Shown in pieces: positions 42,806 to 63,251 of a stretch of DNA of 64,000 nucleotides. A model generated the notes under the pieces. The model ran no database searches. It saw nothing but the letters and a program-made list of their open reading frames with translations, and was not told the origin of the DNA. Where the stretch lies: assembly GCF_011045215.1 (NCBI RefSeq), contig NZ_CP049201.1; one strand, given 5' to 3'. Made by a program: the position numbers and the translations under genes. The DNA is from Escherichia coli. Lineage in GTDB: Bacteria > Pseudomonadota > Gammaproteobacteria > Enterobacterales > Enterobacteriaceae. The number at the start of each line of letters is the position of its first letter. Within the stretch, counting starts at the first letter, position 1.

Positions 42806-43321
<516 letters not shown>

Positions 43322-43328
43322 CACTAAC

Positions 43329-43353
43329 GCCCGCACATTGCTGCGGGCTTTTT
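43329..43353 (+). terminator. Intrinsic terminator after uspF
   Basis: GCCCGCA-cattgc-TGCGGGC followed by TTTTT. Confidence 0.7.
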
Positions 43354-43496
43354 GATTCATTTCGCAAATGTGCTGACATTTTCCCCTCTAATCCGTACCA
43401 TACACGCCACAGTTTTTATATCAGATTTCTTATGCTGGGCGTTCCGGCATGACGCATACTCTTCTGATGCCATATAACGAATTGAGTCGCTTTTAA

Positions 43497-43550
43497 ATGT
43501 CGCAAAATCAAGAAATTAGCAAGAAAGAACAATACAATCTGAACAAGTAA
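43497..43550 (+). pseudogene. ttcC: ttcA 5' fragment (ttcC-like), prophage attachment-site duplication
   Basis: ATG...TAA encodes MSQNQEISKKEQYNLNK, near-identical to recalled TtcA N-terminus (MQENQQITKKEQYNLNK...), then stops. Confidence 0.7.
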
Positions 43551-43652
43551 GGGCAAAAATCACAACCATCTGATGCATAATAGTTTTATTTATTTTTCAA
43601 TGCGTTAATCATTATCAGCAACAACAATAAGCTACGATAATCCACTCTTTTG

Positions 43653-43698
43653 TTGCCCCATTTTTGCCCCTTTTACAGCATTTTGCCCCATTTTTGCC
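43653..43698 (+). repeat. Two exact 16-bp direct repeats TTGCCCCATTTTTGCC spaced 30 bp apart
   Basis: Copies at 43653-43668 and 43683-43698, in non-coding DNA at the prophage end. Confidence 0.8.
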
Positions 43699-43782
43699 AC
43701 CGAAAAAATTCCAAAACTTCTCAACCTCAGCACGTTCTTGAATATGGCATATGACAATTTCCTTTACGATTTATATGCTGTT

Positions 43783-43825
43783 ATAAAAATCCCCAGTTGT
43801 CAGCAACAACTGGGGATTTACTTTT
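43783..43825. terminator. Bidirectional intrinsic terminator downstream of the HTH-peptidase gene
   Basis: Perfect 10-bp stem CCCCAGTTGT-cagca-ACAACTGGGG flanked by A-rich and T-rich runs. Confidence 0.7.
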
Positions 43826-43873
43826 CAGGCCCAAAAGACGTTCACTACGACTCTAGATGTGAGCATTTACGGG

Positions 43874-44980
43874 TCATACTAGTCGGAGCGAAGCCCTTGA
43901 TGGTGTTCTTTTGTTATTTCCGCCACTAATTGCCGCAACTCCATAAAGCAAACTACTCAATTCATCGAGAGGTACGTTAAGCTCATTACTCAAGTGAGCC
44001 AGATAAATGCCGTCTCCAGCCAGAGCAGTCATCATTTTTTCTATAACGAGTGATCTTTCGCGCTCAATTCCCCCCGGCTCACCGGTTCGATACCCCTTTG
44101 CCGTCGCATCACGCATCAAACTATTATACTGCCATTCCGTCAGCATATTTAGATTGCGCATTCTGACAATCAGGGCCATAGCCGAAACTTTCCAGAGTGA
44201 TTTCAATTGCACAATTTTATCAAACGTCGGGACCACCATCTTAACGGCCATCACGTTTTCCTGAGGCATTAGAAATGCAGAAGCAAAAGCATCCGCTTCA
44301 CGCTCAGCATCCTGCCCTTTGACTTCCCCTTGACGATGAAGTACTAGGTGAGCCAATTCATGTGCGGCATCAAAACGGCTGCGTTCACCTGACTTGCGTG
44401 TGTTAAGAAAGATATAAGGAACATCATCTTTCCAGAACGAAAAAGCATCAATACTCGCTGTTTCCTCTGAAAGCCAGAACACCTTAACTCCAAATTTCTC
44501 AAGTAGATGAACAACATTGGTGATACTCTTCTTACCAATCCCCCAAGCCTCGCGTATCGCTTGGGCAGCGACCTCAGGCTCACTTCCACGGAGATTCGGC
44601 AATTGAGGCGAAGGAAGAGTAAAGCGAGCATTAAAATAATCGCTAAGCATAACCCCTAAAGCACCTGCACCAATTGCCGCATGCTGGTCAGCAGCTTTTG
44701 TTGTGCGTAATGAACGAAATGAAACAGTCAATGGATCAATTGTTTCAACATCATCGCCAAAGAAAAAAGCCTCTGGATAATTTAAAGCACTAGCGTATGC
44801 GCGTACCGTCTCTGCCGTGGGTGCATAAAGACAATAATCTTTTTCGTATTCAATTACGATACGACTAGATAACCCGGTTCGCCTCGCCAGTTCTGCCAAG
44901 GTCAGTTTGCGTCTGATCCGCGCTAGCTTTAGTCGAGACGGATTAAAAAGACGTTTGACATCATCAACAGTGTTACTCAT
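43874..44980 (-). CDS. XRE-type HTH + ImmA/IrrE-family zinc metallopeptidase fusion protein
   Basis: N-terminal HTH (LARIRRKLTLAELARRTGLSSRIVIEYE); HEXXH motif with downstream Glu/LMP (AAHELAHLVLH...EREADAFASAFLMP); ATGA start/stop overlap with upstream gene. Confidence 0.8.
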   Translation of the reverse strand: MSNTVDDVKRLFNPSRLKLARIRRKLTLAELARRTGLSSRIVIEYEKDYCLYAPTAETVRAYASALNYPEAFFFGDDVETIDPLTVSFRSLRTTKAADQHAAIGAGALGVMLSDYFNARFTLPSPQLPNLRGSEPEVAAQAIREAWGIGKKSITNVVHLLEKFGVKVFWLSEETASIDAFSFWKDDVPYIFLNTRKSGERSRFDAAHELAHLVLHRQGEVKGQDAEREADAFASAFLMPQENVMAVKMVVPTFDKIVQLKSLWKVSAMALIVRMRNLNMLTEWQYNSLMRDATAKGYRTGEPGGIERERSLVIEKMMTALAGDGIYLAHLSNELNVPLDELSSLLYGVAAISGGNNKRTPSRASLRLV

Positions 44981-45648
44981 TTGCTTTCAACTGAAATTGA
45001 TATGTCATCATCAAAATCCTGTTCAGGGAAAATATCCGCACCTTCAAATTGCAGAGGAGCTAAAATAATTCGCTCACTCCACGCGCTTACTCTGGCAAAT
45101 CCGTCCTGATTCACCATCCCTACCGGATACGACACCTCACAGCGAATTTCTTTATTTGCCGCATCATAATAATACAGAACGATATAAGTTCGGGTGCTAT
45201 CTATCGGCGTGATCTCAGCTTTGCCTGAATGTAAGGTATCTGCTTGGAACATATCGAATGTACCCGGATTGTTGTGAACAATCGAGCGAGTTGCCTCTCC
45301 CTTTGCATTTTTGGTTTTAGGCAATCCATCAGGACGCCCGGTATGTCCGTCACCTGAGGTAATAATCAGATTAACCCCTTTGCTTGAATTAACGACCATT
45401 TCCATGCGATTGACTACTTCAGAAGACCAGCCGTTACCCTTACCAATCAGAATACGGCGAAGCGCGGCAACCATCTCACTCCAAAAGCGGAATCCAGCAT
45501 CCACTTTAGGGTGGAGCTTACTGGATTTGCGTCGCTCGTATAAAGCAGACATTAACGCATCGCGAATATCATTTTCTGTAAAGCCCAGTTTACTAAGTAC
45601 AAAATCCGAATCAATTCCTGTATGCAGAACACAATGAGGCATATTCAT
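44977..45648 (-). CDS. Hypothetical protein, partner of the HTH-peptidase gene
   Basis: ORF with GGGAG RBS before MNMPHCVLH...; stop overlaps next start (ATGA); no family recognised by eye. Confidence 0.6.
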   Translation of the reverse strand: MNMPHCVLHTGIDSDFVLSKLGFTENDIRDALMSALYERRKSSKLHPKVDAGFRFWSEMVAALRRILIGKGNGWSSEVVNRMEMVVNSSKGVNLIITSGDGHTGRPDGLPKTKNAKGEATRSIVHNNPGTFDMFQADTLHSGKAEITPIDSTRTYIVLYYYDAANKEIRCEVSYPVGMVNQDGFARVSAWSERIILAPLQFEGADIFPEQDFDDDISISVESK

Positions 45649-45884
45649 GAAAGTTTCTCCCATCACTTTTACTTCATGATTTTATCATAAAATTTATGCA
45701 AAAATCAAGAAGTGACACCCTGCAAGCGATTGTAGACTTTCTCTTGTTTTCTTACGTTCCTGCTCTCCAATTGCGCAATTGATTTCTTCAACAATATGAG
45801 AGTACACATCATAAACCTCCGACTGCAGCCAGCAACCGGAGCCTCATTCTTCAGATACCAGAACAACTCACTGCGACCTATTCG

Positions 45885-46448
45885 TTACTCAACATTAAAT
45901 GCTCGTATCGCATCTAAATCCTCCAGACTACTCAACTCCTCCTTCATCTCCCGCTGACGCTGATAAATCTCGTCATTGCGATCGACCTGCGCCTGAACCA
46001 TTGCAGTAAGTAGCTCATCCAGTTGTTGCATTGACAACTTTACCTGCTGATTTTCCGCATCACCCCATACCATGTTTTTCCGTGCCGTGACTGATTTTGC
46101 TGATATCACCACCGGGTAAAGACGGGCCATCGAATCCGGTCCCCCGTTCCAGCTATGACCGTTCCATTCAAAAATGAATGGCTGCGCCTCCTGCTCTGTA
46201 CGCCATGCTTCAATTTCCCGGCGTTTGGCTGCTTTTGCTGCTTCCAGCATCTCTGGCGTGACGGTGAACGGCGTTATTTCTCCCCACTTGCCGCTTTGCA
46301 GTTCCTGCCAGACTCGCTGCCCTGTCTCTGCTGTATCCGTGGCAGTTGCCGTATACGGAACCGGTTCATCCATGCCATCAAACAACACCCCGCAGTCAAT
46401 CGCGCCATTTTCAAGATAACGCGCATTTTCGATGCGTTTTATTTCCAT
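45885..46448 (-). CDS. Putative tail fibre assembly/chaperone protein (second module)
   Basis: Immediately downstream of second fibre gene with short overlap; size typical of Tfa; start placed at MEIKRIEN; weak sequence support. Confidence 0.5.
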   Translation of the reverse strand: MEIKRIENARYLENGAIDCGVLFDGMDEPVPYTATATDTAETGQRVWQELQSGKWGEITPFTVTPEMLEAAKAAKRREIEAWRTEQEAQPFIFEWNGHSWNGGPDSMARLYPVVISAKSVTARKNMVWGDAENQQVKLSMQQLDELLTAMVQAQVDRNDEIYQRQREMKEELSSLEDLDAIRAFNVE

Positions 46449-46455
46449 AAAACAC

Positions 46456-47880
46456 CTACGCAATACGTATGAACAAACCAATCATGACACTGGCTGACCC
46501 GGCAGACCCGAGTTCATCGCCTGACAGTGCACGATATGACCCCGGCATACCACCACCAGAACCCCGCACATATACGGAAACGCTGCCGTTATATCCAACC
46601 CCGCTACCGGTCGTGCCGTGACACATAAATTCAACCGCGCTCAGACGTGACCCCGGATAGCTGTACCCGCGTTTTATCCGGCGGTCGGTGTCTGCGTCTC
46701 CCTCACCGTTACAGGCCGCCAGTACAAGACTGCCTGTACCGTACCAGCCGTCCGTGGTACCGGGAGCAATACCGGACAGAAGAGAGATAATGTCCTGTGA
46801 GGTCATCTTCAGATTTTCCCAGCCAGTCAGATAACCATTACCTGTTGTCCAGTAGCGGCTGTAATAAACATCGCCATTAATACCGTAGAAAATAATGGCC
46901 TTTGCTGTATATCGCGGCTCCGGTGGATTATTGCGTGCCTCAACCCACCGGATTCTGACCACCCCGTTAAACAACACACCTCCGGATATGATTTTACTGC
47001 CACCCTCAACAAAATATTCACCCGGCGTCGCATTCCTTACCCATGCCAGAAAATCATCCTCTGTGTTAAAACGGATACGCTCTGCGGGCAAAAAAATATG
47101 CCCAAAACCAAATGCGCCAGGTGTCGCCAGACGACCTTCAGTCCGGTCACGAATGTCGCTCTGTGGCATCATTGTGGCAGCGCTTTTCAGTCCAAGATTA
47201 TCACGGGATTCCTGCTGAGCCTCTTCACCTTCATCAGCCAGCTCTGACAGGCGATTCGCCGTTTTCAGTGTCGCAGATAACGCAGTATCAATATCTGCTC
47301 TGGCCTGCTCTGCACCGGATGCGGCCTGTTTAGCAGCTTCAGCGTCCTTTTTTACCTCTGCGGCGGCATTCTCAACCTGCGAGGCCAGATTTTCGGCCTG
47401 TTGTTTACCCTCCGCAACAGCGTCGGCGTTCTGCTGAACACCTTCCGCCAGTTTTTTTACCTCTTCTTTTGCCCGGGCGGCAGCATCTGCATGTTGCCCT
47501 GCCTGTCGTTCGCTTTCTGTTGCGGTTTCGGCACCCTGCTGCGCCTGCGCCACCATTTCCTCAAATCGTTTCACCACGTCGGGTTTGAGGTCGCCTTCAT
47601 CCAGGGCAGTCAGAAAATCGTTCAGCGTGCCGGGCTTTGAGTCGTCGTATACAGCAATATCGCCAACACAGTACTCGTCGCGCCAGCCCTGTTTCAGATA
47701 TACGCAATATTTTCCGGTCTGCGCCTCAAAACAGTACTCGCCACAGTTTCCTGTCACCACGTCGGCAACTGTGCGCATCACCACCTCTGAGGTGTTTACC
47801 CGGGATTTCAGAATAATGTGGCATCCGGACATGGAGATACCTGCGCCATCAATCAGCGCACCTGATATCACTACAGACAT
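46456..47880 (-). CDS. Tail fibre protein 2 with lambda Stf-like N-terminal domain and divergent C-terminal domain
   Basis: N-terminus MSVVISGALIDGAG...VYDDSKPGTLNDFL resembles recalled side-tail-fibre N-terminal domain; Ala/Glu/Lys-rich coiled coil; Gly-rich C-terminus. Confidence 0.65.
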   Translation of the reverse strand: MSVVISGALIDGAGISMSGCHIILKSRVNTSEVVMRTVADVVTGNCGEYCFEAQTGKYCVYLKQGWRDEYCVGDIAVYDDSKPGTLNDFLTALDEGDLKPDVVKRFEEMVAQAQQGAETATESERQAGQHADAAARAKEEVKKLAEGVQQNADAVAEGKQQAENLASQVENAAAEVKKDAEAAKQAASGAEQARADIDTALSATLKTANRLSELADEGEEAQQESRDNLGLKSAATMMPQSDIRDRTEGRLATPGAFGFGHIFLPAERIRFNTEDDFLAWVRNATPGEYFVEGGSKIISGGVLFNGVVRIRWVEARNNPPEPRYTAKAIIFYGINGDVYYSRYWTTGNGYLTGWENLKMTSQDIISLLSGIAPGTTDGWYGTGSLVLAACNGEGDADTDRRIKRGYSYPGSRLSAVEFMCHGTTGSGVGYNGSVSVYVRGSGGGMPGSYRALSGDELGSAGSASVMIGLFIRIA

Positions 47881-47903
47881 AGTTTTTCTCGCGATAAATT
47901 AAA

Positions 47904-48449
47904 TCAGGAAGAGGCTTCCGGAGAGACGGGCCATTCAATGGCGTTATATGAGGCTTTATCAGTGACGGTGCTGAAATCCATCGCCTGCAGCGATTTCGCG
48001 TAAATGCGGTACGCTTTCAGCTTTTCCCTGTCTTCGTCGCTGATTAATCCCAGCAGCAGGTCTTTTTCCCATTCGCTGGTCATGATGCTGGCCTGTTGTA
48101 ACAGGGCATCGCGTTCATCTTCTGCTTTAAGTTTGTAGTCGAAAACAAATTCATCATTGCGGTAAAACCAGTAACCAGGCACGGTAATACGGCGATTAGC
48201 GGTAATATCAGGAACTTCAATAACACTGGCGTTACGGGGTTCAATACCTGTCACATCCTTACCGACCCACACCACGCGTCCGTCTCCGGTGTAAACCATT
48301 TTTATGGTGTCACTGGCAAAGTTCTTCTGTTCTTCATACCAGTTTTTGCCGTCTTCCGAAAAAAGCCAGGTGACATCATACTGTTTTGTCAGCTGATATT
48401 GTTCCGCGGTTTTCGGATTACCCGCAGTAATATTTTTTAAATGCAACAT
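47904..48449 (-). CDS. Tail fibre assembly protein (Tfa/gpG-like)
   Basis: 181 aa; C-terminal region (KLKAYRIYAKSL...IEWPVSP) resembles recalled Tfa proteins; directly follows fibre gene. Confidence 0.7.
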   Translation of the reverse strand: MLHLKNITAGNPKTAEQYQLTKQYDVTWLFSEDGKNWYEEQKNFASDTIKMVYTGDGRVVWVGKDVTGIEPRNASVIEVPDITANRRITVPGYWFYRNDEFVFDYKLKAEDERDALLQQASIMTSEWEKDLLLGLISDEDREKLKAYRIYAKSLQAMDFSTVTDKASYNAIEWPVSPEASS

Positions 48450-48451
48450 TG

Positions 48452-50005
48452 TTAAACACTCGCCACGTTATACCAGGTGCCGTTAATCAGTTTCTGAAGC
48501 GGTCGGTAATACACGCCGCCGATGTTATCTGCTGAATTTTTTCCGGTATCCTGCACATTAATACCGGATAATCCGTGGCCTGAAGGTGAGCGAAATGTCC
48601 AGGATTTTTCGTTACCTCCCGGGTTATAAAACATTTCGGAGCCATAACGCACATCCTGCACGCCGCCATTTCGCTGCTGGTAACGGGCATCGAAATTTCC
48701 ATAGTTTGATGGAACCATCTGTCCGTTTACAGCGAATGTGATACTGCCATCGGTATTTCTCTGGCTGTAGAAATGCCAGCCGGAATCATCACCAAGCTCT
48801 GCAACTACAGGTCGGGATGAATTACCCCATAAATTAAACGTTGCATTTTTCGTGGAGTTGTTGGCGCTGGATAACGTGAATTTTTTAGCATTTCCGGCCT
48901 GAATATTTTTTAACGCTATCGCCACACCATTCTGGAAACGAAATACATGCTGTCCATTCGCATAAACATCCAGAATGCCGTCGCCGTTTTGTTTTATACC
49001 TGTATCGTTATCCCCGAAAGCAATTGAGTTTCCGCCCAGCGCGTTCTGAACGCCGATACCCAGCGCACCATTGACCTGCGAACCACCGCCAACAGACACT
49101 TTATGCGACATGGATATTTCACCAGTCCGCAGATTAATAGTGAACGGGCGAAGTGGACCAATATCGCCATTCTCGCCCTGACCTTCACTGGTAGGGATAA
49201 GGTGCAGGCACTCTTCCGAACGACGAAAAATAAGGCCAAAAGCGTCGTTGAAAATCCTCAGCGCATTAACACCACGGATTTTCAGCTCCCCGGTCATCAA
49301 ATCACCAGATTTTTTTACATATCGCAGATCAAAATCTGAATAGATATTGCTGGGGTTTATCACGCTGAAATAGCTTTTCTCGCTATCAAGAAGGCAAATC
49401 AAAGGAATACCCTTAATGATATCATTCGCTACCAGCTCGGACTTGTTCCCCTTATAAAGTGGGAACGTACCAAGAACCTTTCCGCCTAGTGTTAGTTGAA
49501 GTGTCGCCGCGTTGGTATTGTTCTGAACGGGGAAGACGATAATCGGGGTTCGTAGCGTCCAATCTGTACCCTCATTAACAAAAAACGTCGAGGGAAGTTC
49601 CAGCGCCAGTGTGTTTGCAGTGCCACCAGCAACACCCGCAATATAATGACCGCTCTGAAGCTGCGCTATCTGTACGAAATAGTTTTCCGATCCACGCGTG
49701 GCAAAGTTAGCCACTACGTCATTAAGGGACCAACCTTTCGCGGTTGTTCCTTCCTGCCCACGAATGACTTTCAGCACGTCACCGTTTACCGATACCAGGT
49801 GACAAATCTCAAATGCAGACTCTTTATTATCGGTAAGCGTAATTTTTGCATAGACGCGTTGCCCGTTCGATTTATTTTCAAAATCGGCAGAAAGCAATTT
49901 TGCAAATTTAGCTCCCGTGCCCGGCATCACCGGAATATCAGTCTGAATCGTCGTAATATCACCAGCCAGTGCTGAAACAACGTTATTGCCGAATCCAAGA
50001 ATCAT
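48452..50005 (-). CDS. Tail fibre protein 1 (P2 gpH / Mu S / Stf-type C-terminal module)
   Basis: 517 aa; segment VNALRIFNDAFGLIFRRSEECLHLIPTSEGQGENGDIGPLRPFTINLRTGEISMSH matches a module I recall from P2 H-type fibres. Confidence 0.8.
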   Translation of the reverse strand: MILGFGNNVVSALAGDITTIQTDIPVMPGTGAKFAKLLSADFENKSNGQRVYAKITLTDNKESAFEICHLVSVNGDVLKVIRGQEGTTAKGWSLNDVVANFATRGSENYFVQIAQLQSGHYIAGVAGGTANTLALELPSTFFVNEGTDWTLRTPIIVFPVQNNTNAATLQLTLGGKVLGTFPLYKGNKSELVANDIIKGIPLICLLDSEKSYFSVINPSNIYSDFDLRYVKKSGDLMTGELKIRGVNALRIFNDAFGLIFRRSEECLHLIPTSEGQGENGDIGPLRPFTINLRTGEISMSHKVSVGGGSQVNGALGIGVQNALGGNSIAFGDNDTGIKQNGDGILDVYANGQHVFRFQNGVAIALKNIQAGNAKKFTLSSANNSTKNATFNLWGNSSRPVVAELGDDSGWHFYSQRNTDGSITFAVNGQMVPSNYGNFDARYQQRNGGVQDVRYGSEMFYNPGGNEKSWTFRSPSGHGLSGINVQDTGKNSADNIGGVYYRPLQKLINGTWYNVASV

Positions 50006-50628
50006 TTTTGAATCACCGTTGTTGCATAGGAATAAATAAAAGGGAGTTTTACATATTTCTGGTCAATGGCATCTTTCAGAAAATAGCCTATACCATCACC
50101 ATATTCTGGTATCTGAATAGAAAAAACACTGTCCGATACAGTCACGCTCACATCAAAAGTGTGCTGCAACGGCGGGTCTATTCCGTTTTTTCCATGAATA
50201 AAGCGCGCCACACGGCGCTTTAACCAGTCAATGCAGAAATGCGAACCGTCAGCCTTGTAAAAATTCCACGTTAATATTCGTTTGAAATAATCATCCGGAA
50301 CATACGATGCCTGCCCCGGAACATAATTCCGCATTGCCGCATAAGGGATTGTATTGTATTCAATGGTATCGTATGCGCCGCGTGCAATAGCCTCCTCGGA
50401 AACCTGTAGTAAAGGCCTTTCAACGCCATAAATCCCGAGAGCAATCCAGTCCAGCAATTGCCCGGTTATTGATTCCGATGTCCAGCATGGCAATGCCAGA
50501 TTGTTGAGTGAATCGAGGTATTCCTGAGCAATTTCATTGTATGCATCAAAGAACGCAACAACATTCGGATCATCTCTGTACTGCACAAACGGATAAGCAG
50601 GGAGAATTTTTTCAGTCAGATATTGCAT
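50002..50628 (-). CDS. Baseplate protein (gpI-like, by position)
   Basis: Lies between J-like gene and fibre; start placed at MQYLTEKILP to limit overlap. Confidence 0.5.
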   Translation of the reverse strand: MQYLTEKILPAYPFVQYRDDPNVVAFFDAYNEIAQEYLDSLNNLALPCWTSESITGQLLDWIALGIYGVERPLLQVSEEAIARGAYDTIEYNTIPYAAMRNYVPGQASYVPDDYFKRILTWNFYKADGSHFCIDWLKRRVARFIHGKNGIDPPLQHTFDVSVTVSDSVFSIQIPEYGDGIGYFLKDAIDQKYVKLPFIYSYATTVIQK

Positions 50629-51838
50629 ACTTGTTAACTTGAACCTGTGATGCCACCGTCGAAAAATAGGAATAGGTATCGCCATAAACCAGGCTTGTGT
50701 CTTTTGCCGGAGGAACAATATGGCCATTAATGCCAATGCTCACACTGATTGTTGAGATCAACGTCGCATCAACCAACAATCTGACGGAACTGGTAAAAAT
50801 ATCCTGGATTCGCAGCAGATTTATCGGGTGTCCGACTTCAATAGAATTGATGTAATCAGCAACGTTTTGCTGCACAGCCATAGCAATACCCGCCGGATCA
50901 ACATAATCATCAGATACAGTGTTCCAGGTGATTAGCACCATGACGTTTTGTGATGACGGGATAACGAACGGCACCTGATAAACATCTGGCGAAACGGTTA
51001 TTGAAACCGTGCGTTTTTCCACTGCCGCACCAGATGGATTGCTAACATCGTTGGTCAGTTTCGAAATATCCGGTACAGATTTGTAAATAGCATAAGCCAC
51101 ATCATACGGATCACCGCCACCAACAACCGCAACCCATTTCCCCAGCGACGACTGCCGGAAAGAAATCAGGTTTTCTCGCACACCGCTTACTGATTTGAGC
51201 ATCGCTTTAAAGCAATCCGGTGTTCCCTGCACACCAAACATGCCGGACTCCATGACTTCGGCGCGGTAAGATGCCCACGTTTGCGCCTCCTGACCTGGCA
51301 TCCCTGCGGTAAGGTTCGTGCATTTTACAGGCTGATCTTTGGGTACCGATGTAATGACCTGCGTTACGGTTCCTTCCGGTACAGCCCATGAGCCTGACGT
51401 TGTGGCCACACAGTAGACTGGCTCAGTCTGCCCGCTTTCCGGCACCACCGTATCGCGGGAAACTGCATACTGGTAGTTGCCGTCACCGACAACAAATCCT
51501 TTAGGGATACCAAACCCCGGCAACGCCTCAAACACCACGTATACCGCCGTATTTGTACTTAATCCCTTCTGTGCTCCATAAATGTTTCCGAGTTGCATCA
51601 ATAACGGAATATTTGCGCCGTATGGGCTTACGGAGTTAATAAGGTCCACCCGCGCCTGGTCTATTAATGCCAGCGCCCCGACTGCCGTGCTGGCAAGGTC
51701 AGTAATAAGCCCCGCCGGAAGGTTGGCTGTATATCCAGGTACTTTTTCAGCAACTCTGATGATAAGATCTGCAAGCAAATCATTGGGTGGCGTAGGCTGC
51801 GCCCCCGCACTGGTCATAGTAATTGGTATTTCTGACAT
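50612..51838 (-). CDS. Baseplate wedge protein (gpJ/gp47-like, by position and size)
   Basis: 408 aa; GGAG RBS; order W - J - I - fibre typical of contractile-tail baseplate clusters. Confidence 0.55.
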   Translation of the reverse strand: MSEIPITMTSAGAQPTPPNDLLADLIIRVAEKVPGYTANLPAGLITDLASTAVGALALIDQARVDLINSVSPYGANIPLLMQLGNIYGAQKGLSTNTAVYVVFEALPGFGIPKGFVVGDGNYQYAVSRDTVVPESGQTEPVYCVATTSGSWAVPEGTVTQVITSVPKDQPVKCTNLTAGMPGQEAQTWASYRAEVMESGMFGVQGTPDCFKAMLKSVSGVRENLISFRQSSLGKWVAVVGGGDPYDVAYAIYKSVPDISKLTNDVSNPSGAAVEKRTVSITVSPDVYQVPFVIPSSQNVMVLITWNTVSDDYVDPAGIAMAVQQNVADYINSIEVGHPINLLRIQDIFTSSVRLLVDATLISTISVSIGINGHIVPPAKDTSLVYGDTYSYFSTVASQVQVNKYAISD

Positions 51839-51850
51839 ATTTACTCCATT

Positions 51851-51876
51851 AAAAAACCCGCTTTCGCGGGTTTTTT
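51851..51876. terminator. Intrinsic terminator immediately after the moron gene and 13 nt before the J-like gene
   Basis: AAAAAA-CCCGC-tttc-GCGGG-TTTTTT, perfectly symmetric. Confidence 0.75.
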
Positions 51877-51878
51877 AC

Positions 51879-53054
51879 TTATTCAACCTCTTCTAAACTG
51901 CTCACTCTGGACCCTCGGCGGAAATTATCATCATTTTTAACATACTCGTATGAATCCAGAATCAAACCAGATATGCGAAGTATATCTTCCGGATTAGTTA
52001 TATGTATCCTTTTACCATCCGTATCAAGTCGAGCTCGTCTTATTTCATTCAACTGAACTTCACTAAGCGAAATAGGTAAAGTTATAAATGAAGATTTTTT
52101 ATCATAAAATCTTAACAGCCATCTATTTGTTTTACCATTCAATAGTACACCGAAATATGACTCAGTATCTTTATATTCTATATTATCTTCTGTTTGTATG
52201 ATTTGTTTTACCCTTTCAAATAGCTCCAATTCTTTGGCTGTGGTTATTATGTTGGGGTTTTCTTCATCAACAATGGCGTTATTAACTTGTGTATCCGTTG
52301 CATCATTTTCTTTAGTTTGCTCTACCGGTTGTGTAGATAGCCCGGAAACCACCATTGCGCTAACAGCGCGCTCAACGGCCTGTTTAACTAATGGAGTCAC
52401 GAACTCAAGAAATCTCTGATTAAGTTGTCTCTCAATATTTGAACGACTAGCAACATATCGAACAAACTCCAGATCAACTTCACGAAGACTAGAACTGATT
52501 GTTTTAGTAAATGAATTCAAATAAACACTTTCTTCAGCCAGTGTCCGTAAAGCCTCTGGTTTGAATTTATCATAACGAAAACGAAATAATTGTGTAATAT
52601 CGGAGTGAGTTAGAGAATCCATTCTTAATTTTAAAAACGGCGTTGAATCCATTATGTTTTTTTGTTTCAAATCCGTAAAAAAACGCCATTCAACACCATT
52701 TGTAATGGCTGATATAGTAACTTCCGGTGTTGAATTAAAATATCTTGATAGCTGTGGGCAGTGATTATCAATTTGTTCTGAAAACGATTTCGCCTCAATG
52801 AACATCACAGGAACATCATGACAAAATAAAGCGTAATCAACCCGTTCATTAGCCTTAACCCCGGGGAAGTCAGCACTATACTCAGCTTTGACTTTTCTTG
52901 GATCATACGGAGTAAAACCAAGAATATCTAGTAATGGCATAATGAGTGCTTGTTTTGTCGTTTCTTCAGTTGTACAAAACACCCCCATTTTTGCAACATG
53001 CTCTGTGTGTATTTTTAACTTATTTGCAAAATTTTCCATGCTTGTCTCCTCCAT
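51879..53054 (-). CDS. Orphan HsdR-N-like PD-(D/E)xK nuclease-domain protein (AT-rich moron; candidate defence gene)
   Basis: N-terminal motifs ETTKQALIMPLLDILGF / RVDYALF / VMFIEAKS / QLSRYF / AITNGVEWRFF as in type I R-subunit N-domains; C-terminal ~270 aa unassigned; AT-rich; likely start at second ATG (53039) after GGAGGAG. Confidence 0.7.
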   Translation of the reverse strand: MEETSMENFANKLKIHTEHVAKMGVFCTTEETTKQALIMPLLDILGFTPYDPRKVKAEYSADFPGVKANERVDYALFCHDVPVMFIEAKSFSEQIDNHCPQLSRYFNSTPEVTISAITNGVEWRFFTDLKQKNIMDSTPFLKLRMDSLTHSDITQLFRFRYDKFKPEALRTLAEESVYLNSFTKTISSSLREVDLEFVRYVASRSNIERQLNQRFLEFVTPLVKQAVERAVSAMVVSGLSTQPVEQTKENDATDTQVNNAIVDEENPNIITTAKELELFERVKQIIQTEDNIEYKDTESYFGVLLNGKTNRWLLRFYDKKSSFITLPISLSEVQLNEIRRARLDTDGKRIHITNPEDILRISGLILDSYEYVKNDDNFRRGSRVSSLEEVE

Positions 53055-53188
53055 GGTAACAATATGTATTTTGCAAATCCGAAATAATATATGTCAATAT
53101 GCTCCAGCTTAGAAAATTACTCGCCCCCCTAAAATATCTCTCTACAGCACTCCAAACCAAGGTAAAAGTTTTATCATAAAACTGTGAT

Positions 53189-53536
53189 TCATACCGGCAC
53201 CTGCGTCCGGTAACTGGTCCCATTAAAAAACACAACATCGATGTTATAGGTGGGGTTATCTGCTCCATCTACCTTTGAAATTGCCAGTGATGCAAAATAC
53301 CCAGCAAACTGTTGCTGAACCATGTTCACATAGTAGTCTGGGTAAATCTGCTGCACGATGCACTGCTGCGCAGGAATACCGTAATTCGCGTAAAACGGCG
53401 ACTCCCCCAATCCCAGCTTTAACGTCTGAATGAGCGTCGTCAGCCAGCCGTAGGAGAAATCACCGTTGGCGTCAGATTCTACTGCAACCCATTTTTTGTT
53501 GCCGTTCGCGTCGGTGACGCGGCCCCATGTTCTCAT
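53189..53536 (-). CDS. Baseplate protein (gpW/gp25-like)
   Basis: 115 aa; LKLGLGESPFYANYGIP resembles the gp25/W-family core; position before J. Confidence 0.5.
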   Translation of the reverse strand: MRTWGRVTDANGNKKWVAVESDANGDFSYGWLTTLIQTLKLGLGESPFYANYGIPAQQCIVQQIYPDYYVNMVQQQFAGYFASLAISKVDGADNPTYNIDVVFFNGTSYRTQVPV

Positions 53537-53736
53537 CGTGCCCCCATCACTTTAACTAACTCTGTCAGTACTGGTGAAAAGGCAAATGCTAAAGCTACGA
53601 GTGCAGCGGTGTAATACATGCGTCGTAAGGTATTGCTTTTTGCCACTAATTTTAAGGCTTTCACAATCCAGTCTCCTCCGCTAAAATTAATCACGGAAGA
53701 CCTCCAAACATACGTAATCATCCCTTGCGTATTCAA
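53533..53736 (-). CDS. Small hypothetical protein with hydrophobic C-terminal segment
   Basis: 67-aa ORF overlapping W-like start by 4 nt; TAALVALAFAFSPVL stretch; coding status unverified. Confidence 0.35.
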   Translation of the reverse strand: MNTQGMITYVWRSSVINFSGGDWIVKALKLVAKSNTLRRMYYTAALVALAFAFSPVLTELVKVMGAR

Positions 53737-53747
53737 GGTGAGAAACA

Positions 53748-53786
53748 GAAAACCCCGACTGGGCCAACAGTCGGGTTTTTCGTTTT
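53748..53786. terminator. Intrinsic terminator-like hairpin between spike gene and downstream baseplate genes
   Basis: CCCGACTG-ggccaa-CAGTCGGG with flanking A/T runs on both strands. Confidence 0.55.
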
Positions 53787-53818
53787 ATGGTCAGAATTTA
53801 AAGTGAAATGAACCGGTA

Positions 53819-54532
53819 TTAACCAGGATTTGGTTTCTTCGACGTAATCGTGCTGCTGCCGCTTTGAACACCAGTCACATCGTGGCTGTGGCCGCTGACG
53901 CTCACGCCGTTGATAACTGCATCCATCTCGACATTAAGAGGACCAATCAGCGAAGCGGTTGTATCCTTCATCTGGGCTTTGTCCTGGACGATCGGTCCGT
54001 TGAGGTGAATTTTCCCGTTCAGGAAAATATCTTCGGCCTCGAGGTAAACAGCTTTCGACTTTTGCCTGATTTCTTCCAGAGCCACCATTACCGAGCTACT
54101 GCCGTCCTCTGTTTTGAGGATCGCGCCATCCGGACCGTACAAAACGATTTTTTGCGGATCTTCGTCGGACCACTCCTTGTTTGCCAGTGGCACGAAAAAC
54201 AGGGGAGTGAGCGACATCGAGTAAGAAAGCGTTGCCATACCGGTTCCCAATCCGGACACACCGCGCAGTGATACATCAGCGGCAATTGTTACTCCTCGAT
54301 CGCCCGGCTGTATCGGGTAACGGATATACGGGAATGTGGCGACAGGGATTGTTATCTGCGGGAAGTTGATCCCCTCCGGCAACATATCAAACTGAACTGT
54401 CACTATTTGCCCGCAGATATCGACAACATGGCAGGGCAATTCGCGGCCTTTAAGCTCGGCTTGTTGGTTACCAGAACTGGTCATCATCTCCGACAGTGTT
54501 CGGAGAAACGGTAATTTTTGAGCGTTTGACAT
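53819..54532 (-). CDS. Baseplate central spike protein (gpV/gp5-like)
   Basis: 237 aa; C-terminal HxH motif (VSGHSHDVTG) as in metal-binding spike tips; position after hub. Confidence 0.6.
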   Translation of the reverse strand: MSNAQKLPFLRTLSEMMTSSGNQQAELKGRELPCHVVDICGQIVTVQFDMLPEGINFPQITIPVATFPYIRYPIQPGDRGVTIAADVSLRGVSGLGTGMATLSYSMSLTPLFFVPLANKEWSDEDPQKIVLYGPDGAILKTEDGSSSVMVALEEIRQKSKAVYLEAEDIFLNGKIHLNGPIVQDKAQMKDTTASLIGPLNVEMDAVINGVSVSGHSHDVTGVQSGSSTITSKKPNPG

Positions 54533-55539
54533 TACACCCTCGCCCAGTTCTCAGCATATGCCTCAAATACCGTCACCCAGGCATCGCCATCGGCTGTCAG
54601 ATACGAACCAATGTGTCTGACTGATTTCACAAGAAATTTCCCGGTGAACGTGGTCGAATTTTTTGCGATAACGCTGGGTACCGTTGTATTAGCCATCACA
54701 ATCGACGCAGCGCCAGAATATAGCCCCTCCGGCAGTTTAACCACATCACCACATCTGATATCGCCTCTCATAGGGCATTTGAAACTGACGGTAAACGGCG
54801 CTATCCATGTCGGCTGCCCGACCAGTTCATGGGCATGAATTGTTTTTGGCTCACCCCACTTTGCCGATGCGTTATCGTAGATTCGTATTCTGTCGGAAAG
54901 AATACTGATGGCGATTCCGCTATACCTTTCATTACGCATCATCGCAATAGAGGCGTTTTTTACGACCATAGCCAGCGAACCAATCTCCGTATATTTGCCC
55001 GTCCACGGCTCTGGCAAAACCAGGTTGTCGCTGACTGTGCAATCAATAAGTTTATTGGGATATGCTTTTTGCAAAGCGCGGACTAAAACATCGCCCACCC
55101 TTTCCCCTGCTTCCCCCTGCCCCTCAATTGAAAAAGGTTTACCGTCATCGGTTTTGCGTATGCTTGGATTTATTACCAGGTTTAAAGTCTGGTTCGTGCC
55201 GATCCAGTTGGCATAGGCCAGATAAATTTCACCATAGATTACCTCCCCCTGTTGATCCTTATTTGCCAGTGGTAACCCCTGAACAAAGCCTGCTTTCATA
55301 CGTACCAGACAACCCTGCAAACTTACGCTTTGCTTCAGCATGTCAATTGGTAATCCATAGATCGTCAGCATCGTACCCGAACAGACTACATCCAGGCCGG
55401 TTACTTCAAAGTCAAATTCAACATGTAACCCACATCCTGGTGTTTCATTGGTATCAAAAGGTCCAATGGGTTTTCCATTGCTATCCACTGGCGGCTTGCC
55501 TGTTTTAGGATTAATAATTTCCAGTCGGTAATAACGCAT
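54532..55539 (-). CDS. Baseplate hub protein (gpD/gp27-like, by position)
   Basis: 335 aa immediately upstream of spike; tight coupling. Confidence 0.45.
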   Translation of the reverse strand: MRYYRLEIINPKTGKPPVDSNGKPIGPFDTNETPGCGLHVEFDFEVTGLDVVCSGTMLTIYGLPIDMLKQSVSLQGCLVRMKAGFVQGLPLANKDQQGEVIYGEIYLAYANWIGTNQTLNLVINPSIRKTDDGKPFSIEGQGEAGERVGDVLVRALQKAYPNKLIDCTVSDNLVLPEPWTGKYTEIGSLAMVVKNASIAMMRNERYSGIAISILSDRIRIYDNASAKWGEPKTIHAHELVGQPTWIAPFTVSFKCPMRGDIRCGDVVKLPEGLYSGAASIVMANTTVPSVIAKNSTTFTGKFLVKSVRHIGSYLTADGDAWVTVFEAYAENWARV

Positions 55540-55805
55540 TACGAAACCTCAAACTGATTCGTACTTTCGCGAAAAACAAGTTTCCCCGGTGAGCAAGGCA
55601 GCGCCAGATTGATGTCGTAACTGTCTGGTGACGCGATCAAAGGCATGTATACAATCACGTCGCCTGAACTGTCTTTCAGTTCCAGGTAGTAACGATTTGC
55701 ATACAGATTAAACGGAACGCGGGCGAATGTTTCATATTCTCCGATTCTGGCCGTGAACTGAAATGGTCCTCGCCCGTCAGGTTTGAAAGGAATTAACGTT
55801 GTCAT
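55539..55805 (-). CDS. Hypothetical tail protein
   Basis: 88-aa ORF tightly coupled between neighbours. Confidence 0.4.
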   Translation of the reverse strand: MTTLIPFKPDGRGPFQFTARIGEYETFARVPFNLYANRYYLELKDSSGDVIVYMPLIASPDSYDINLALPCSPGKLVFRESTNQFEVS

Positions 55806-56470
55806 AAGCCAAAACCAAACTCCTGCACGACCTGGTTCTTAATACCTGACCACGATAGCGCCCCGTCTGACGGCATCCCTTTATCAAATTTATCCAGAAC
55901 GCTCGCCAGCGTTTTTACCGTTTGTTCGACAGACGACAATGGTTGCTCAAACTCAATCTGCCAGGTGTGCTGAACCTGCTTGTTCTGCTCAGAGAAACCG
56001 GATGTATCGATAAACGACCGCATCAGACAGCGCGTGTAGATGAAAGATGGCGTCATTACGGTGTAACAACCGCCATACTGGTTATGCATATCGAGCGCCA
56101 TTTTCAGCGCCGTAAACGTCATCCCCTTAGTGGTGTAGCCACCGTCCTCCGTTGATACCGGACGGATCATCTGCATGACTACCCGGTTAGGCTTCCTGAC
56201 GGTCGCATTCGCTGCCGTTACCTGGTTATAGAAATTCAGGTTGCAAATATCCTGCTGGACCAGCGTTGTCCCGGCCATTGGCGTGAATGCCGCCATCGAG
56301 CGTGTATGAATCTCTCCATGCAGCAGACCGTTCGCGATACTTAGTCCTTCGGTCAGAACAGCAATCGGCATCACCCCGCCGGGAATTTTCGACGCTATGC
56401 CATCAACTAAAAGAATGGGCGAAACTTCAAACGCCAGTTTGAAAGCTTGTCCAAAGTAATTAAGTGACAT
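55802..56470 (-). CDS. Hypothetical tail protein following tape measure
   Basis: 222 aa; 4-nt gap to TMP stop. Confidence 0.45.
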   Translation of the reverse strand: MSLNYFGQAFKLAFEVSPILLVDGIASKIPGGVMPIAVLTEGLSIANGLLHGEIHTRSMAAFTPMAGTTLVQQDICNLNFYNQVTAANATVRKPNRVVMQMIRPVSTEDGGYTTKGMTFTALKMALDMHNQYGGCYTVMTPSFIYTRCLMRSFIDTSGFSEQNKQVQHTWQIEFEQPLSSVEQTVKTLASVLDKFDKGMPSDGALSWSGIKNQVVQEFGFGL

Positions 56471-56473
56471 CTT

Positions 56474-58447
56474 TTACCCCGGTATTTGTTGCGTTCCGGC
56501 GAGTTGTGCCAGTATGTCGGAACCCGGCGATTGTCGCACCTGAAGCTCAATTATTGCGCGGGCATTTTTGCCAGCACCCTGAAGGTTATCTCTGGCATTT
56601 CTTAGCTGATTCATAATACCAGGGTGTTGATCCAAAGCTCCCTGTATCTGAGGCAATAATTTAATTAAATATTTTACAGTCTCCATTCTCAAACTTAGAT
56701 TTCCATCTCTATCAATACGACCTCCGTTATATGCCGTAAGCATTTTTGCCACATCGCCTTTATAACGCCGGTTCAGATCATTTAAAAAGCGGCCAGCCGC
56801 AAGAGTGGATTTATTTGGGTCATAAACATCATCACCCACCAGACCATACTGTTTTGCGGTGCTATCCCAGAATTGCCACAACCCCTTAGCGAATCTACCT
56901 TTTTCATCTGGAGTTCCTCTTGCCAGAGGATTCCACGAAGATTCAACCTCCGCGATAGCTGACATCATATTTTTAGGAAGTCGATAAGTATTATTGGCTT
57001 GCTCTACAAAGTTCTGAATATTTCTCTTTAAATCATTAGGCATACGGTAATTTTTATATACATCATCCTGTTTATAAAACTCACCCGTATACTGATTTGT
57101 CATCGGGTTTGCTCCCGGCAACGCACCACCGAGATATTTATTCCCAAATGCCGCAAGAACTGGATCTGCCTGTTCAGCACCAACTCCGGTTCCGGGGAGA
57201 TATTTATCTTCCCCACCGATCCATTTGATAGCTGACCATATTGCTTTTGCAATCCGGCTCACCGCCAGAGAAAAATCGTCAAGATCATTTTTAAATTGTT
57301 CGCTATTCAGCCACTTACCAAGTTTCTCCAGCCCTTCGCCAGCCTCAGTGAGAATTTTCTGAAAATTTCCACCATTCAGAAAACCTTCAATATTGGATGT
57401 CAGCCCATCAGATGCACCTGTGATTAGTGGGTTATATCTGGCGAGAGCTGCATACCAGGAATTTGATATTCTGTTTCCATTTACCATCAGGTTACTCACC
57501 GTATCCTGATAACCTGACTGCATAGCTGGCGTGAGGTAAGCACCGAGCAACCTGGTATTTGATGCAAATTTCTCGTTCAGTTGGGGGATCTTGTCCAGAT
57601 TCGCTTCCACCTGGTTAGTTGTCGCGACATCAACAAATCCAAGCCCTTGTCCGTTGAGAATCCCCTGAGTAAGTCCTGAACCTTTATATTGCTTAACGAG
57701 AGATGCAAGCGCGCTCATAAGTTTGGGCAGATTCTTTGCTGCACCATCTCGAGGATCAATTCCAAGACTGACCAGACCAGCATAGTTTGGATCATTCGGA
57801 TTTTTCTGTGCGTTCGCCAGATGCTGAACCAGTTCTTCTGTGCCAGAAAAATATGGCGAATAGGTGGCACGTGCGGCCTGCATCTGTGCGGTTTCCATAC
57901 CCAGCCCCTGAGCCACGCTGTATTGCGCTGCAACCTTGCTCGCCATATATCCGTACCCGAAAGCACCGACCGAACCAAGCGCCGCAATTTTGCTCCCCCA
58001 GGATACAGTCGTTTTAAACAGCGTTTTCAGTCGTGAATTGGTCGTTTTAAGCGTTGAATTGATCTGCTTGTAAGTTTTCAGCGTCCCCTGAGCGTTTTTA
58101 CCCAGACTACTGAGATACTTATCAAACATCGTTTCGCCGCGACCTTTATAGTTGCTCACCAGCGAATCAGGTGTTTTTCCGCTACCGACAAAGCTCCCTT
58201 TTTCATCCCTTAAACGTCCATCGGTGGGCGCAGGTGAAGATGGTTTCCTGGGAGCCTGATTGGCTTCTCCGCCCGAGGTTGCCTGCTGCGTGCCACCTCC
58301 TAGACCTGTATTTGAAGGTATTTTAAGCGGCGTCCCCGCAGGGCCAATCATCAGCCCATTGCGATACTTTTCAAATATCGCCTCAAGTCGCTTAAGGTGT
58401 TCTTCATTAACGTCCAGTGTCAGAACTGGCATCTGATTACCTGACAT
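56474..58447 (-). CDS. Tail tape measure protein with lytic transglycosylase-like domain
   Basis: 657 aa, Gly/Ala-rich; SLT-like motif AIAEVESSWNPLA...GLWQFWDSTA; follows frameshift chaperone. Confidence 0.75.
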   Translation of the reverse strand: MSGNQMPVLTLDVNEEHLKRLEAIFEKYRNGLMIGPAGTPLKIPSNTGLGGGTQQATSGGEANQAPRKPSSPAPTDGRLRDEKGSFVGSGKTPDSLVSNYKGRGETMFDKYLSSLGKNAQGTLKTYKQINSTLKTTNSRLKTLFKTTVSWGSKIAALGSVGAFGYGYMASKVAAQYSVAQGLGMETAQMQAARATYSPYFSGTEELVQHLANAQKNPNDPNYAGLVSLGIDPRDGAAKNLPKLMSALASLVKQYKGSGLTQGILNGQGLGFVDVATTNQVEANLDKIPQLNEKFASNTRLLGAYLTPAMQSGYQDTVSNLMVNGNRISNSWYAALARYNPLITGASDGLTSNIEGFLNGGNFQKILTEAGEGLEKLGKWLNSEQFKNDLDDFSLAVSRIAKAIWSAIKWIGGEDKYLPGTGVGAEQADPVLAAFGNKYLGGALPGANPMTNQYTGEFYKQDDVYKNYRMPNDLKRNIQNFVEQANNTYRLPKNMMSAIAEVESSWNPLARGTPDEKGRFAKGLWQFWDSTAKQYGLVGDDVYDPNKSTLAAGRFLNDLNRRYKGDVAKMLTAYNGGRIDRDGNLSLRMETVKYLIKLLPQIQGALDQHPGIMNQLRNARDNLQGAGKNARAIIELQVRQSPGSDILAQLAGTQQIPG

Positions 58448-59128
58448 TCAATACCCCTCCCGGCGTCGTGCATTTACGCAGCTCACGAAACTGAGCTGCT
58501 GTTTTTACATTCAGACCGGAATTTGCCCAGATGTCGCTGAATCCGTCTCCGGCTGAGTAGTCGAGGATGTCGCTGATAACGTGCTCGCCGTCGCGCCAGA
58601 ACTGGCGACAGGCTTCAATGTCGGCAATGAAGCAATCCATTCCGTAAGACTCAAGGATGAAGTGCGACTGTTCCACATTCCACTGACTACCAGCATCATC
58701 TGTTCCGTCTGCTCCGGTGTGTTTATCGACGAGACGCATGTAAAAAAAACGAGTTCACCTGCCACATCATCAAATTCAACGATGCCGCGCTCTAGCGCCA
58801 TATCAAGCGGGATCGTGTCGTAGCCTTTCCCTTCGACTGGGTAAACCAGATTCGCAAGACGAATGATTTCATTCACGAGCGTATTGCGAACGCCCTTTTC
58901 GCCATCCCAGATATTCATATCTGAGGAGATCCGTTCCAGCATAAGGCAGGCGATACGCGGCCCCGAAACGACGCCAAGACCTTCTGAAAAAATGGCAGAA
59001 AAGGTTTTACTCAGAATAAAGAAATGCTCTTTAAACACCTCTTTGCTGATCGGCGTGGCATGGATCCAGCCGTTCCCCTTTTCTGTCCGGACAGGAATAA
59101 TCAGATTCAAATTTCGCGCGATTTTCAT
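58437..59128 (-). CDS. Tail assembly chaperone, 0-frame product 59128..58511 and -1 frameshift fusion extending to 58437
   Basis: Slippery T-tract (minus 58749-58742) in overlap of two frames; second frame ends 8 nt inside TMP start; classic chaperone arrangement between tube and TMP. Confidence 0.65.
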
Positions 59129-59568
59129 ACCAGATCCCACATTTCAGAGTTGATGTAATACGTACCGGTAATGGTGATGGCTACACCAGGCTCGCCCCCG
59201 GCGAAGGTCATATCCTGCACGTTGGTGATCGCCGTGTTATAGATATCGAAGTCACCGAATACCGTGCTGTCGCTATACACTTTTGCGTCGCCGATCGTGG
59301 CGTTCTTTTCCCATTGAGCCTTGAATTGTTTCCCCAGCGCCTGGCTACGCAGCAGATGAACACGCGCCTGTAAAATCATGTATGGCTGCGGCGACTGCAC
59401 GGCTCCCGTCATGGCGGGTAAAAACTCCGTGATATTGCCCTGAAAGGACAATTCGACGCCTTCTTTTGCCAGAAATGAGGCGGACACATTCAGTTCGGAA
59501 TGAGAGGTGAATTTAACGCTGGCGCGAACCCGGTTAAGGGTGCCAACGGGGATCATTGGATTAGGCAC
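59125..59568 (-). CDS. Tail tube protein (by position/size)
   Basis: 147 aa between sheath-sized gene and chaperone; ATGA overlap with chaperone start. Confidence 0.55.
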   Translation of the reverse strand: MPNPMIPVGTLNRVRASVKFTSHSELNVSASFLAKEGVELSFQGNITEFLPAMTGAVQSPQPYMILQARVHLLRSQALGKQFKAQWEKNATIGDAKVYSDSTVFGDFDIYNTAITNVQDMTFAGGEPGVAITITGTYYINSEMWDLV

Positions 59569-59579
59569 GGTTCAGTCCC

Positions 59580-60917: not shown

Positions 60918-61861
60918 TATTTAACCTCATATTTACAAATAACTTTTTCAATCAACTGCCGGGATATTTTCCGGGCGGTGCTCTGGTAGTAATTCACGTC
61001 AAAATCGACAATCTTTTTCTTCGCCAGAGCGTTGATTTCAACCTGTCCCGACTTTGCGTCCTGAACCACCGGAATATTGGTTACACCAAACTTTTCCTCC
61101 TCCAGCGCCCTGTTCACCACCGAGTCGACAAGATCCAGCGCCATTTTGTTGCTGAATCCGTAAAGCGTCAGGCGAACCGAATCCTGGACTAGCTGGAACC
61201 GCTCACCGCCGAAAACAACGGGAGCCACCTGCAACGGAATACTGTTGCGAACATCCACCGCGATATACGGAGGGCGAAGGTTCTGCGGTACCAGGTAAGA
61301 CGGATACACGGTCGCGGCATCTTTCATTTGCAGCCAGATCGGGATGCTGTTGGAGATGATCTGCTCGTCGCTGATATCCTCCTCGCAGTCGATAATCTGA
61401 GAACGCATGGTTGGTAAAATCGCCATGCCGCGATAATGAAAAATACCAGACTGCTGATAACGGCTCTCCATTCGTGAAAAAGCGAACTGGACGCCTCCGT
61501 ACTCACCGAGATAGATCGCATCGGGATTTTCCACATTAAAATCATCAACCTGCTGAACAGGCGTGAAAATAATGTTGTTCACATCCTTCGAGACAGACTC
61601 GTCCTGAATCGCAATAACCTGACGATGCAGGCTGCCTTTGATTTTCAGACGAGTTGGTGACTCAATATTCAGGCGACACAGTTCATCGCAACTGATGATT
61701 TCCGCATTAACCCAATAGACAAAGCCATCCAGCGGCAGAACCTGCCGGACATAGAGCCTGAACGTGATTTCCTGGTCTGACGAGATGGTTTCAACTGCGG
61801 ATTTAAGAACGGACGAGAGCTGCGAACTGTGCTGTTCGGCTAATTCCTCAAGACTCGGCAT
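60917..61861 (-). CDS. Hypothetical head-tail joining / tail completion protein
   Basis: 314-aa ORF between head-side genes and sheath. Confidence 0.4.
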   Translation of the reverse strand: MPSLEELAEQHSSQLSSVLKSAVETISSDQEITFRLYVRQVLPLDGFVYWVNAEIISCDELCRLNIESPTRLKIKGSLHRQVIAIQDESVSKDVNNIIFTPVQQVDDFNVENPDAIYLGEYGGVQFAFSRMESRYQQSGIFHYRGMAILPTMRSQIIDCEEDISDEQIISNSIPIWLQMKDAATVYPSYLVPQNLRPPYIAVDVRNSIPLQVAPVVFGGERFQLVQDSVRLTLYGFSNKMALDLVDSVVNRALEEEKFGVTNIPVVQDAKSGQVEINALAKKKIVDFDVNYYQSTARKISRQLIEKVICKYEVK

Positions 61862-63222: not shown

Positions 63223-63251
63223 TTAGCTCCCCGCATTATCAGATTGAACGT

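Follow-up and report, generated by a model that had tools for sequence, protein, structure and literature searches.

A reading frame of 54 bases that begins like ttcA and stops almost at once raises two questions, namely how the gene came to be cut there and at which base the chromosome gives way to foreign DNA. We addressed both in a stretch of Escherichia coli DNA of 64 kb (64,000 nucleotides; hereafter the window), in which the frame, at 43497-43550 on the plus strand, reads ATG TCG CAA AAT CAA GAA ATT AGC AAG AAA GAA CAA TAC AAT CTG AAC AAG TAA and translates to MSQNQEISKKEQYNLNK*. A preliminary description had taken it for an ATG followed by 17 codons near-identical to the start of TtcA and then a stop. 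The resemblance to TtcA and the stop were borne out, yet the count was off by one, as the 17 codons include the ATG and are directly followed by the TAA. All 17 residues are those of TtcA in an E. coli strain with an empty site (2013C-3342) and 13 of the 17 those of K-12 TtcA, and the peptide is identical to the K-12 ttcC product; at the DNA level, 52 of the 54 bases agree with K-12 ttcC and 50 with the ttcA 5' end of the empty site.

In the K-12 reference record, the 51-base pseudogene ttcC (b4638; 1434958-1435008) occupies the same position as the window fragment, and the 'cryptic prophage Rac' feature starts at 1411899, a position within the initial 50 bases of ttcA, and ends at 1434958, where ttcC has its last base. 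From the literature, Rac is known to lie between ttcA and ttcC', and its excision to change four N-terminal residues of TtcA, with att sites that match imperfectly (Liu et al. 2015, PMC4632033; reviewed in PMC6379469). IntR/XisR-dependent excision that restores attB together with a circular attP was shown experimentally for K-12 Rac (PMC4632033), and a junction of the window type is termed attR in the nomenclature of that study (Liu et al. 2015, PMC4632033).

It is nearly certain, in our view, that a tyrosine integrase of the Rac type (IntR) inserted a prophage into the 5' end of ttcA, and that 43497-43550 is the junction on its bacterial side. As such it is already known, namely as the described ttcC pseudogene and attachment junction of a Rac-type prophage; every defining feature of a Rac-type ttcC'/attR junction for which the window can be searched is present, and the case is an ordinary one. 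All of this has been described for E. coli K-12 and its relatives, and its value lies in annotation and not in discovery: it assigns the integration module to the Rac type (IntR/XisR at ttcA), sets the left prophage boundary to the base and predicts that TtcA of the lysogen has a phage-encoded N-terminus. What we add is small, that is, an argument on strand exchange drawn from natural variants and a list of the repeated motifs that are conserved in the attP arm.

The severed ttcA start beside uspF

The features on the chromosomal side of the junction are:
42887..43321, plus strand: uspF, an open reading frame annotated as uspF in matched genomes; left chromosomal neighbour of the attachment site
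43329..43348, plus strand: uspF terminator-like hairpin with T run (hairpin search)
43373..43401, plus strand: promoter-like site ~96 bases 5' of the ATG (consensus match only, 9/12)
43497..43550, plus strand: ttcC' mini-ORF, the severed original ttcA 5' end (17 codons) with a TAA stop from the phage
43548-43550, plus strand: the TAA stop codon, assigned to phage DNA

On its chromosomal side, the window has the genes known from the uspF-ttcA region of E. coli (paa genes, tynA, feaB/R, ydbH, ldhA, hslJ, nifJ/ydbK, MicC, ompN, uspF). Among them, the MicC sRNA (Rfam RF00121, 125 bits) lies at 41268-41388 on the minus strand between nifJ/ydbK and ompN, as in K-12. The ATG of the mini-ORF is situated 176 bases 3' of the uspF stop codon, beyond the uspF terminator hairpin, and the whole region upstream of it is identical to that of intact ttcA in empty-site strains. 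The arrangement is that of a Rac-type junction: directly 3' of uspF, co-oriented with it and with the native ttcA upstream region kept. Within this region, 43373-43401 represents a candidate native ttcA promoter, now orphaned; sites of this kind number three in the region against 1.3 expected from shuffles, which is weak evidence.

A non-specific event, such as a deletion, IS activity or misassembly, might in principle truncate ttcA as well, and the window by itself shows a single junction, beyond which nothing specific speaks for such an event. Yet among 5,426 complete E. coli genomes, at least 1,837 (at least 34%) have the same base-precise junction, with different prophage cargo, and both the reciprocal junction and attP exist (see below). 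Besides, a contig of an independent assembly, retrieved from Logan through an exact YdbK match (SRR11014969), is 100% identical across the junction and ends inside the prophage. We regard a non-specific truncation as vanishingly improbable.

Outside the junction, none of the 5,426 complete E. coli genomes is more than 98.9% identical to the chromosomal part of the window (1-43546), as measured over 12.5 kb, and the host lineage is therefore not represented among the complete RefSeq assemblies of this species.

As to how often the site is left unoccupied, we queried the 5,426 complete genomes with a synthetic attB at a coverage of at least 80%. The site was empty in 2,486 of them (~46%), with the flank from uspF to the core contiguous with ttcA, and the top matches reached 99.6% over the full length of the query. 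The ttcA attachment site ranks among the most frequently used in E. coli; of 638 strains in an earlier survey, 69% were reported to have Rac at the ttcA locus (PMC6379469). A different occupant was observed in E. coli PapM-32-1 (L007, 15500-18547) and E. coli SCPM-O-B-8794 (L029, 1-3560), where sitABCD, encoding an iron/manganese transporter, is placed between a ttcC' fragment with a Rac-type arm and an integrase-less int-side arm by ttcA. Lying between the two arms, the sit operon is therefore located in a decayed prophage remnant at the same attachment site.

The att core and the two ttcA starts

The element on which the junction turns is:
43521..43546, plus strand: 26-bp att core AAGAAAGAACAATACAATCTGAACAA, the identity block common to attB, attP and both junctions

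We aligned six sequences, namely the window junction, the ttcC junctions of C7 and K-12, their int-ttcA junctions and one empty site. Left of the 26-bp block, the window corresponds to the empty site (bacterial upstream region, ATG and codons 2-8), and right of it to the prophage ends (GTAAGGGCAAAAATCAC...); in the int-side junctions of K-12 and C7 the order is reversed, in that phage DNA precedes the core and the ttcA body follows it. The block itself is common to all six aligned sequences, with the consensus AAGAAAGAACAATACAA(C/T)CTGAACAA, and GenBank KU052037 (Rac-SA53) gives these 26 bp the annotation attP/attB. The window core matches K-12, C7 and SA53 at 25 of 26 positions and two empty-site contigs (L036, L037) at all 26; position 43538 is T in the window and C in K-12, C7, SA53 and every phage copy examined, a discrepancy that speaks against the Rac-type reading. 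An intact attP is present in five IMG/VR contigs (L010, L011, L015, L016, L017), in which the integrase stop is followed by two copies of TTTGCCCC, then ATGCAAGAAAATCAACAAATTACA, the core and the GTAAGGGC... arm. Ten further contigs contain the int-side junction.

All four sites, attB, attP, attL and attR, are thereby documented, and their relation is one of reciprocal exchange within the core. The core occurs once in the 64-kb window and not at all in 100 shuffles, with up to three mismatches allowed, so that the match is not due to chance. This four-way relation, established here, supports site-specific reciprocal recombination within the 26-bp identity at 43521-43546. Chromosomal DNA extends to about 43533-43546, and the G at 43547 is the first phage-only base. 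The preliminary description had seen in the segment the footprint of an integration into the 5' end of ttcA, with the att core within or just after it, and had proposed it as a precise estimate of the prophage boundary. All three points are upheld: attB, attP, the int-side junction and the window junction are reciprocal around the 26 bp; the core, defined by an alignment that includes an empty site, lies inside the fragment at 43521-43546; and the prophage limit is fixed to 14-27 bases.

The ttcA start had also been called duplicated, which is true of the 26-bp core and only of that. The window copy is the original chromosomal ttcA 5' end with its native upstream region, and the copy at the far end is a diverged, phage-borne surrogate that has an ATG of its own and diverged codons 2-8 (MQENQQIT; ATGCAAGAAAATCAACAAATTACA), with 17 of 24 bases as in the bacterial version. 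Since attP of phages in the Rac-type group does contain a start resembling that of ttcA, one might suspect that the window fragment, too, is phage-borne rather than chromosomal. However, the phage copy differs in codons 2-8 and is preceded by the integrase stop and the TTTGCCCC motifs, whereas the window has the bacterial codons, is contiguous with uspF as in empty-site strains and carries a C at 43520 that belongs to the host lineage. We therefore judge a phage-borne origin to be extremely improbable. The C at 43520 is a SNP of the host lineage common to PapM-32-1 (the nearest chromosomal relative), two related lysogens (L041, L043) and an empty-site metagenome contig (L037), and together with the T at 43538 it makes up the two SNPs that separate the window from K-12 ttcC.

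No second copy of the core was found in the 64-kb window in a search that allowed up to three mismatches, and the far end of the prophage lies outside. The integrase, excisionase and second junction of the window prophage, all of them beyond the window, are taken from relatives. The best junction-spanning match among the complete genomes, and the nearest relative in which both junctions are present, is E. coli C7 (98.3% over 1.2 kb), in which the tail and baseplate genes are collinear; its prophage measures ~51 kb and ends with xisR and intR, followed by ttcA. By analogy, the missing far junction would be located ~30 kb past the end of the window. A match at the other prophage end, on which the reading of the preliminary description hinged, does exist in relatives with the same junction (C7, K-12, Rac-SA53), in all of which the far end comprises intR/xisR together with an unbroken ttcA whose 5' end is of the phage type.

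On this evidence, the chromosomal attB inside ttcA codons 9-17 recombined with the phage attP within the 26-bp identity. The native ttcA upstream region, the start codon and the first 17 codons were left beside uspF, where phage DNA from 43547 onwards supplies a stop at once. The phage attP, for its part, has its own start codon and diverged codons 1-8; at the far end these would be joined to the ttcA body, so that the lysogen would keep a working TtcA that is different at four N-terminal residues. The attP arm of ~156 bp with its repeated TTGCCCC motifs would probably bind Int and/or XisR, and an IHF consensus abuts the core. This resembles the scheme of gene-end integrators, such as e14 at icd or tRNA-targeting phages, in which attP duplicates the displaced end, so that the function of the target gene is kept and the other junction is left with a pseudogene fragment (PMC6379469). 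At ttcA, though, the replacement affects the 5' end, and with it the start codon and presumably the signals for expression, whereas e14/icd and tRNA genes have their 3' end replaced; replacement of the 5' end is the less common case.

The phage arm and the cargo beside it

From the core into the prophage, we distinguish:
43506..43518, plus strand: IHF consensus WATCAANNNNTTR, matched exactly by AATCAAGAAATTA, which adjoins the core
43547..43702, plus strand: conserved phage attachment arm (attP arm distal to int), ~156 bp (conservation profile)
43551..43560, minus strand: inverted GGGCAAAAAT copy of the TTTTTGCCC motif, directly after the core
43653..43700, plus strand: four direct TTGCC(C/A)C motifs, starting at 43653, 43664, 43683 and 43694 (repeat search)
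43787..43819, minus strand: hairpin with T run, terminator of the rmrA/rmrT cassette (14-nt perfect arms; -24.9 kcal/mol, z = -6.3)
43874..45666, minus strand: RmrA-like and RmrT-like genes, the last cargo before the arm (PADLOC)
43874-44980, minus strand: RmrA-like gene, 368 aa, HTH and M78 peptidase (PADLOC RmrA, E = 5.6e-143)
44977-45666, minus strand: RmrT-like gene, 229 aa, overlapping and upstream (PADLOC RmrT, E = 1.3e-59)
43547..64000, no strand assigned: prophage, incomplete in the window, with tail fibre, baseplate and other virion-module genes, all on the minus strand

Among 17 distinct sequences with different cargo, conservation of the arm extends from 43547 to ~43702 and then collapses. 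Most E. coli matches to the junction end at 43724-43727; the limit of homology among prophages that differ in cargo is ~43702-43727. Identity over the arm amounts to 89.8% with K-12 Rac, 94.9% with C7, 96.2% with Rac-SA53 and 90.9% with an intact attP.

The arm is rich in repeats: a 16-nt unit recurs exactly at a spacing of 30 nt, and the only two exact copies of TTTGCCCC in the 64-kb window both lie here, with two more in the int-side arm of attP. The TTGCC(C/A)C motifs are clustered, and they are largely conserved across the 17 arms, fully so over 43681-43696; L045, an unrelated element at the same site (see below), has comparable repeats in its arm, TTTGCCCC among them. From this pattern we infer that the TTGCCCC motifs are candidate arm-type sites, probably bound by Int and/or XisR. 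In K-12, XisR was reported to bind an attR fragment (PMC4632033). IHF consensus sequences have been noted at both the ttcA and the ttcC start, with K-12 binding at the ttcA-side site and not at the ttcC-side one (PMC8407004). In addition, the arm contains a degenerate direct repeat of the core (43524-43542, AAAGAACAATACAATCTGA, versus 43555-43573, AAAAATCACAACCATCTGA; 74% identical, 31 nt apart), and 43555-43573 may be a secondary core-like site or a product of chance.

The mechanism resembles that of lambda, with a tyrosine integrase, an excisionase and IHF. Like lambda, the Rac-type system has its integrase gene by attP, a short identity core, an IHF consensus and flanking arms in which motifs are repeated, and its excisionase binds to one of the junctions. 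A lambda-like att site would have a defined overlap of 6-8 bp between staggered cleavage sites, for which natural variants point to a putative zone at 43534-43543 (see below). Unlike lambda, in which the core identity is 15 bp, it has a core identity of 26 bp, and its motif sequences are unrelated to the lambda arm sites.

Next to the arm, the gene pair at 43874-45666 looks like a toxin-antitoxin or defence pair of the Rosmer type, carried as terminal cargo. The pair yielded a match to PHROG 2439, and Pfam HTH_3 and Peptidase_M78 were found on a protein identical to the RmrA-like one. The exact RmrA-like protein is present in 49 blocks of the assembly collection, and all six of the places shown have it at the same junction by uspF. 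Searches against Rfam returned no RNA family overlapping the 43497-43550 fragment; sub-threshold NsiR1 matches on both strands at 43771-43833 were dismissed, as they merely reflect the terminator hairpin.

This hairpin (43787-43819) would also face read-through from the orphaned ttcA promoter, which bears on whether the fragment might be functional beyond being a scar, either as a translated 17-aa peptide or as a promoter firing into the prophage end antisense to rmrA/rmrT. Such a role would be compatible with integration by a Rac-type integrase. In its favour, the native upstream region and the start codon are fully kept, including the promoter-like site at 43373-43401, and the fragment is conserved across lysogens. 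That conservation, however, is explained by membership in the att site and a recent common origin, the strong hairpin stands between the fragment and rmrA, and the K-12 annotation is that of a pseudogene. We consider a functional role of the orphan fragment, through either expression or promoter activity, very unlikely.

Compared with K-12 Rac, the junction lies in the same place 3' of uspF, specifies the same 17-aa product and has the same core but for one base. The prophage itself is longer (~51 kb in the collinear C7, against a 23-kb remnant in K-12) and has a baseplate-type tail module as well as the terminal RmrT/RmrA cassette. Rac-SA53 (KU052037) shares the site and the annotated 26 bp, but differs in the cargo by the arm. 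One virion protein of the window prophage is widespread, with 127 blocks in the assembly collection. Among the baseplate genes, a gene on the minus strand at 51879-53054 is inserted that encodes a 391-aa protein with a PHROG 4225 ('endonuclease') match; its counterparts in related prophages have Pfam HSDR_N/HSDR_N_2 domains, and in C7 it is annotated as 'type I restriction endonuclease'. It is likely a moron or defence gene.

Natural variants and a putative zone of strand exchange

Natural variants of the core suggest a narrower interval for the crossover, in the right half of the core:
~43534..43543, no strand assigned: putative zone of strand exchange (overlap) in the core, placed by natural variants

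The first variant is Rac-SA53, whose int-side core is AAGAAAGAGATATACAACCTGAACAA, reading GAGATA where others have GAACAA, whereas its ttcC-side core is standard. The phage-specific bases at core positions 9-11 are present on the int side only, and exchange must therefore have occurred beyond core position 11, the last base to differ. This leaves 15 bases (43532-43546), of which the 14-bp block 43533-43546 was used as the SA53-based exchange limit.

The second variant comes from a contig (L045; GCA_910665095.1, CAJVFD010000014.1) whose host side has 3 differences in ~8,800 bases from the window (99.97% identical), and in which another element occupies the ttcA site. In its junction (8790-9000, compared with 43521-43543 of the window), identity with attB ends after core position 23, three bases earlier than in the window, with ...AACCTGAA before and GGTAATAC after this point. 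The L045 junction yields a different truncated peptide, and an SRAP gene comes after the arm; neither the junction nor the element had a match in IMG/VR or in the 5,426 complete E. coli genomes.

The third variant is the window itself. At core position 18, L045 has C and the window has T (43538). From the 3 differences in 8.8 kb, the chance of a random host SNP falling in the 26-bp core is estimated at ~1%, and position 18 was therefore probably affected by the recombination event. The T allele is shared by the empty attB contigs L036 and L037, by one int-side junction (L029) and by a subset of the lysogens with this type of prophage. Given its occurrence in empty attB, an int-side junction and only some lysogens, we rejected the idea that the T simply lies left or right of the crossover. 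The data fit best with core position 18 being within or next to the overlap, roughly 43534-43543; alternatively, a recurrent C/T change at a synonymous site is possible.

Taken further, the exact exchange zone that we infer from SA53, L045 and the window would put the T at 43538 inside an IntR-type overlap of ~43534-43543, with integration either across a one-base heterology or from an unseen attP variant. We offer this only tentatively and think it the less probable outcome. If it were true and the int-side junction had C at position 18, the mismatch between the junctions could impair excision and help to 'ground' an otherwise complete-looking prophage.

The exact T-variant core had no match in IMG/VR and was absent from all phage copies examined. 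It does occur, being matched exactly, in ttcA of Citrobacter, Phytobacter and Candidatus Pantoea formicae as well as in empty-site E. coli-like metagenome contigs (loci L028, L030, L031 and L033-L037). The target of the phage is therefore a piece of coding sequence that has been conserved from one genus to another.
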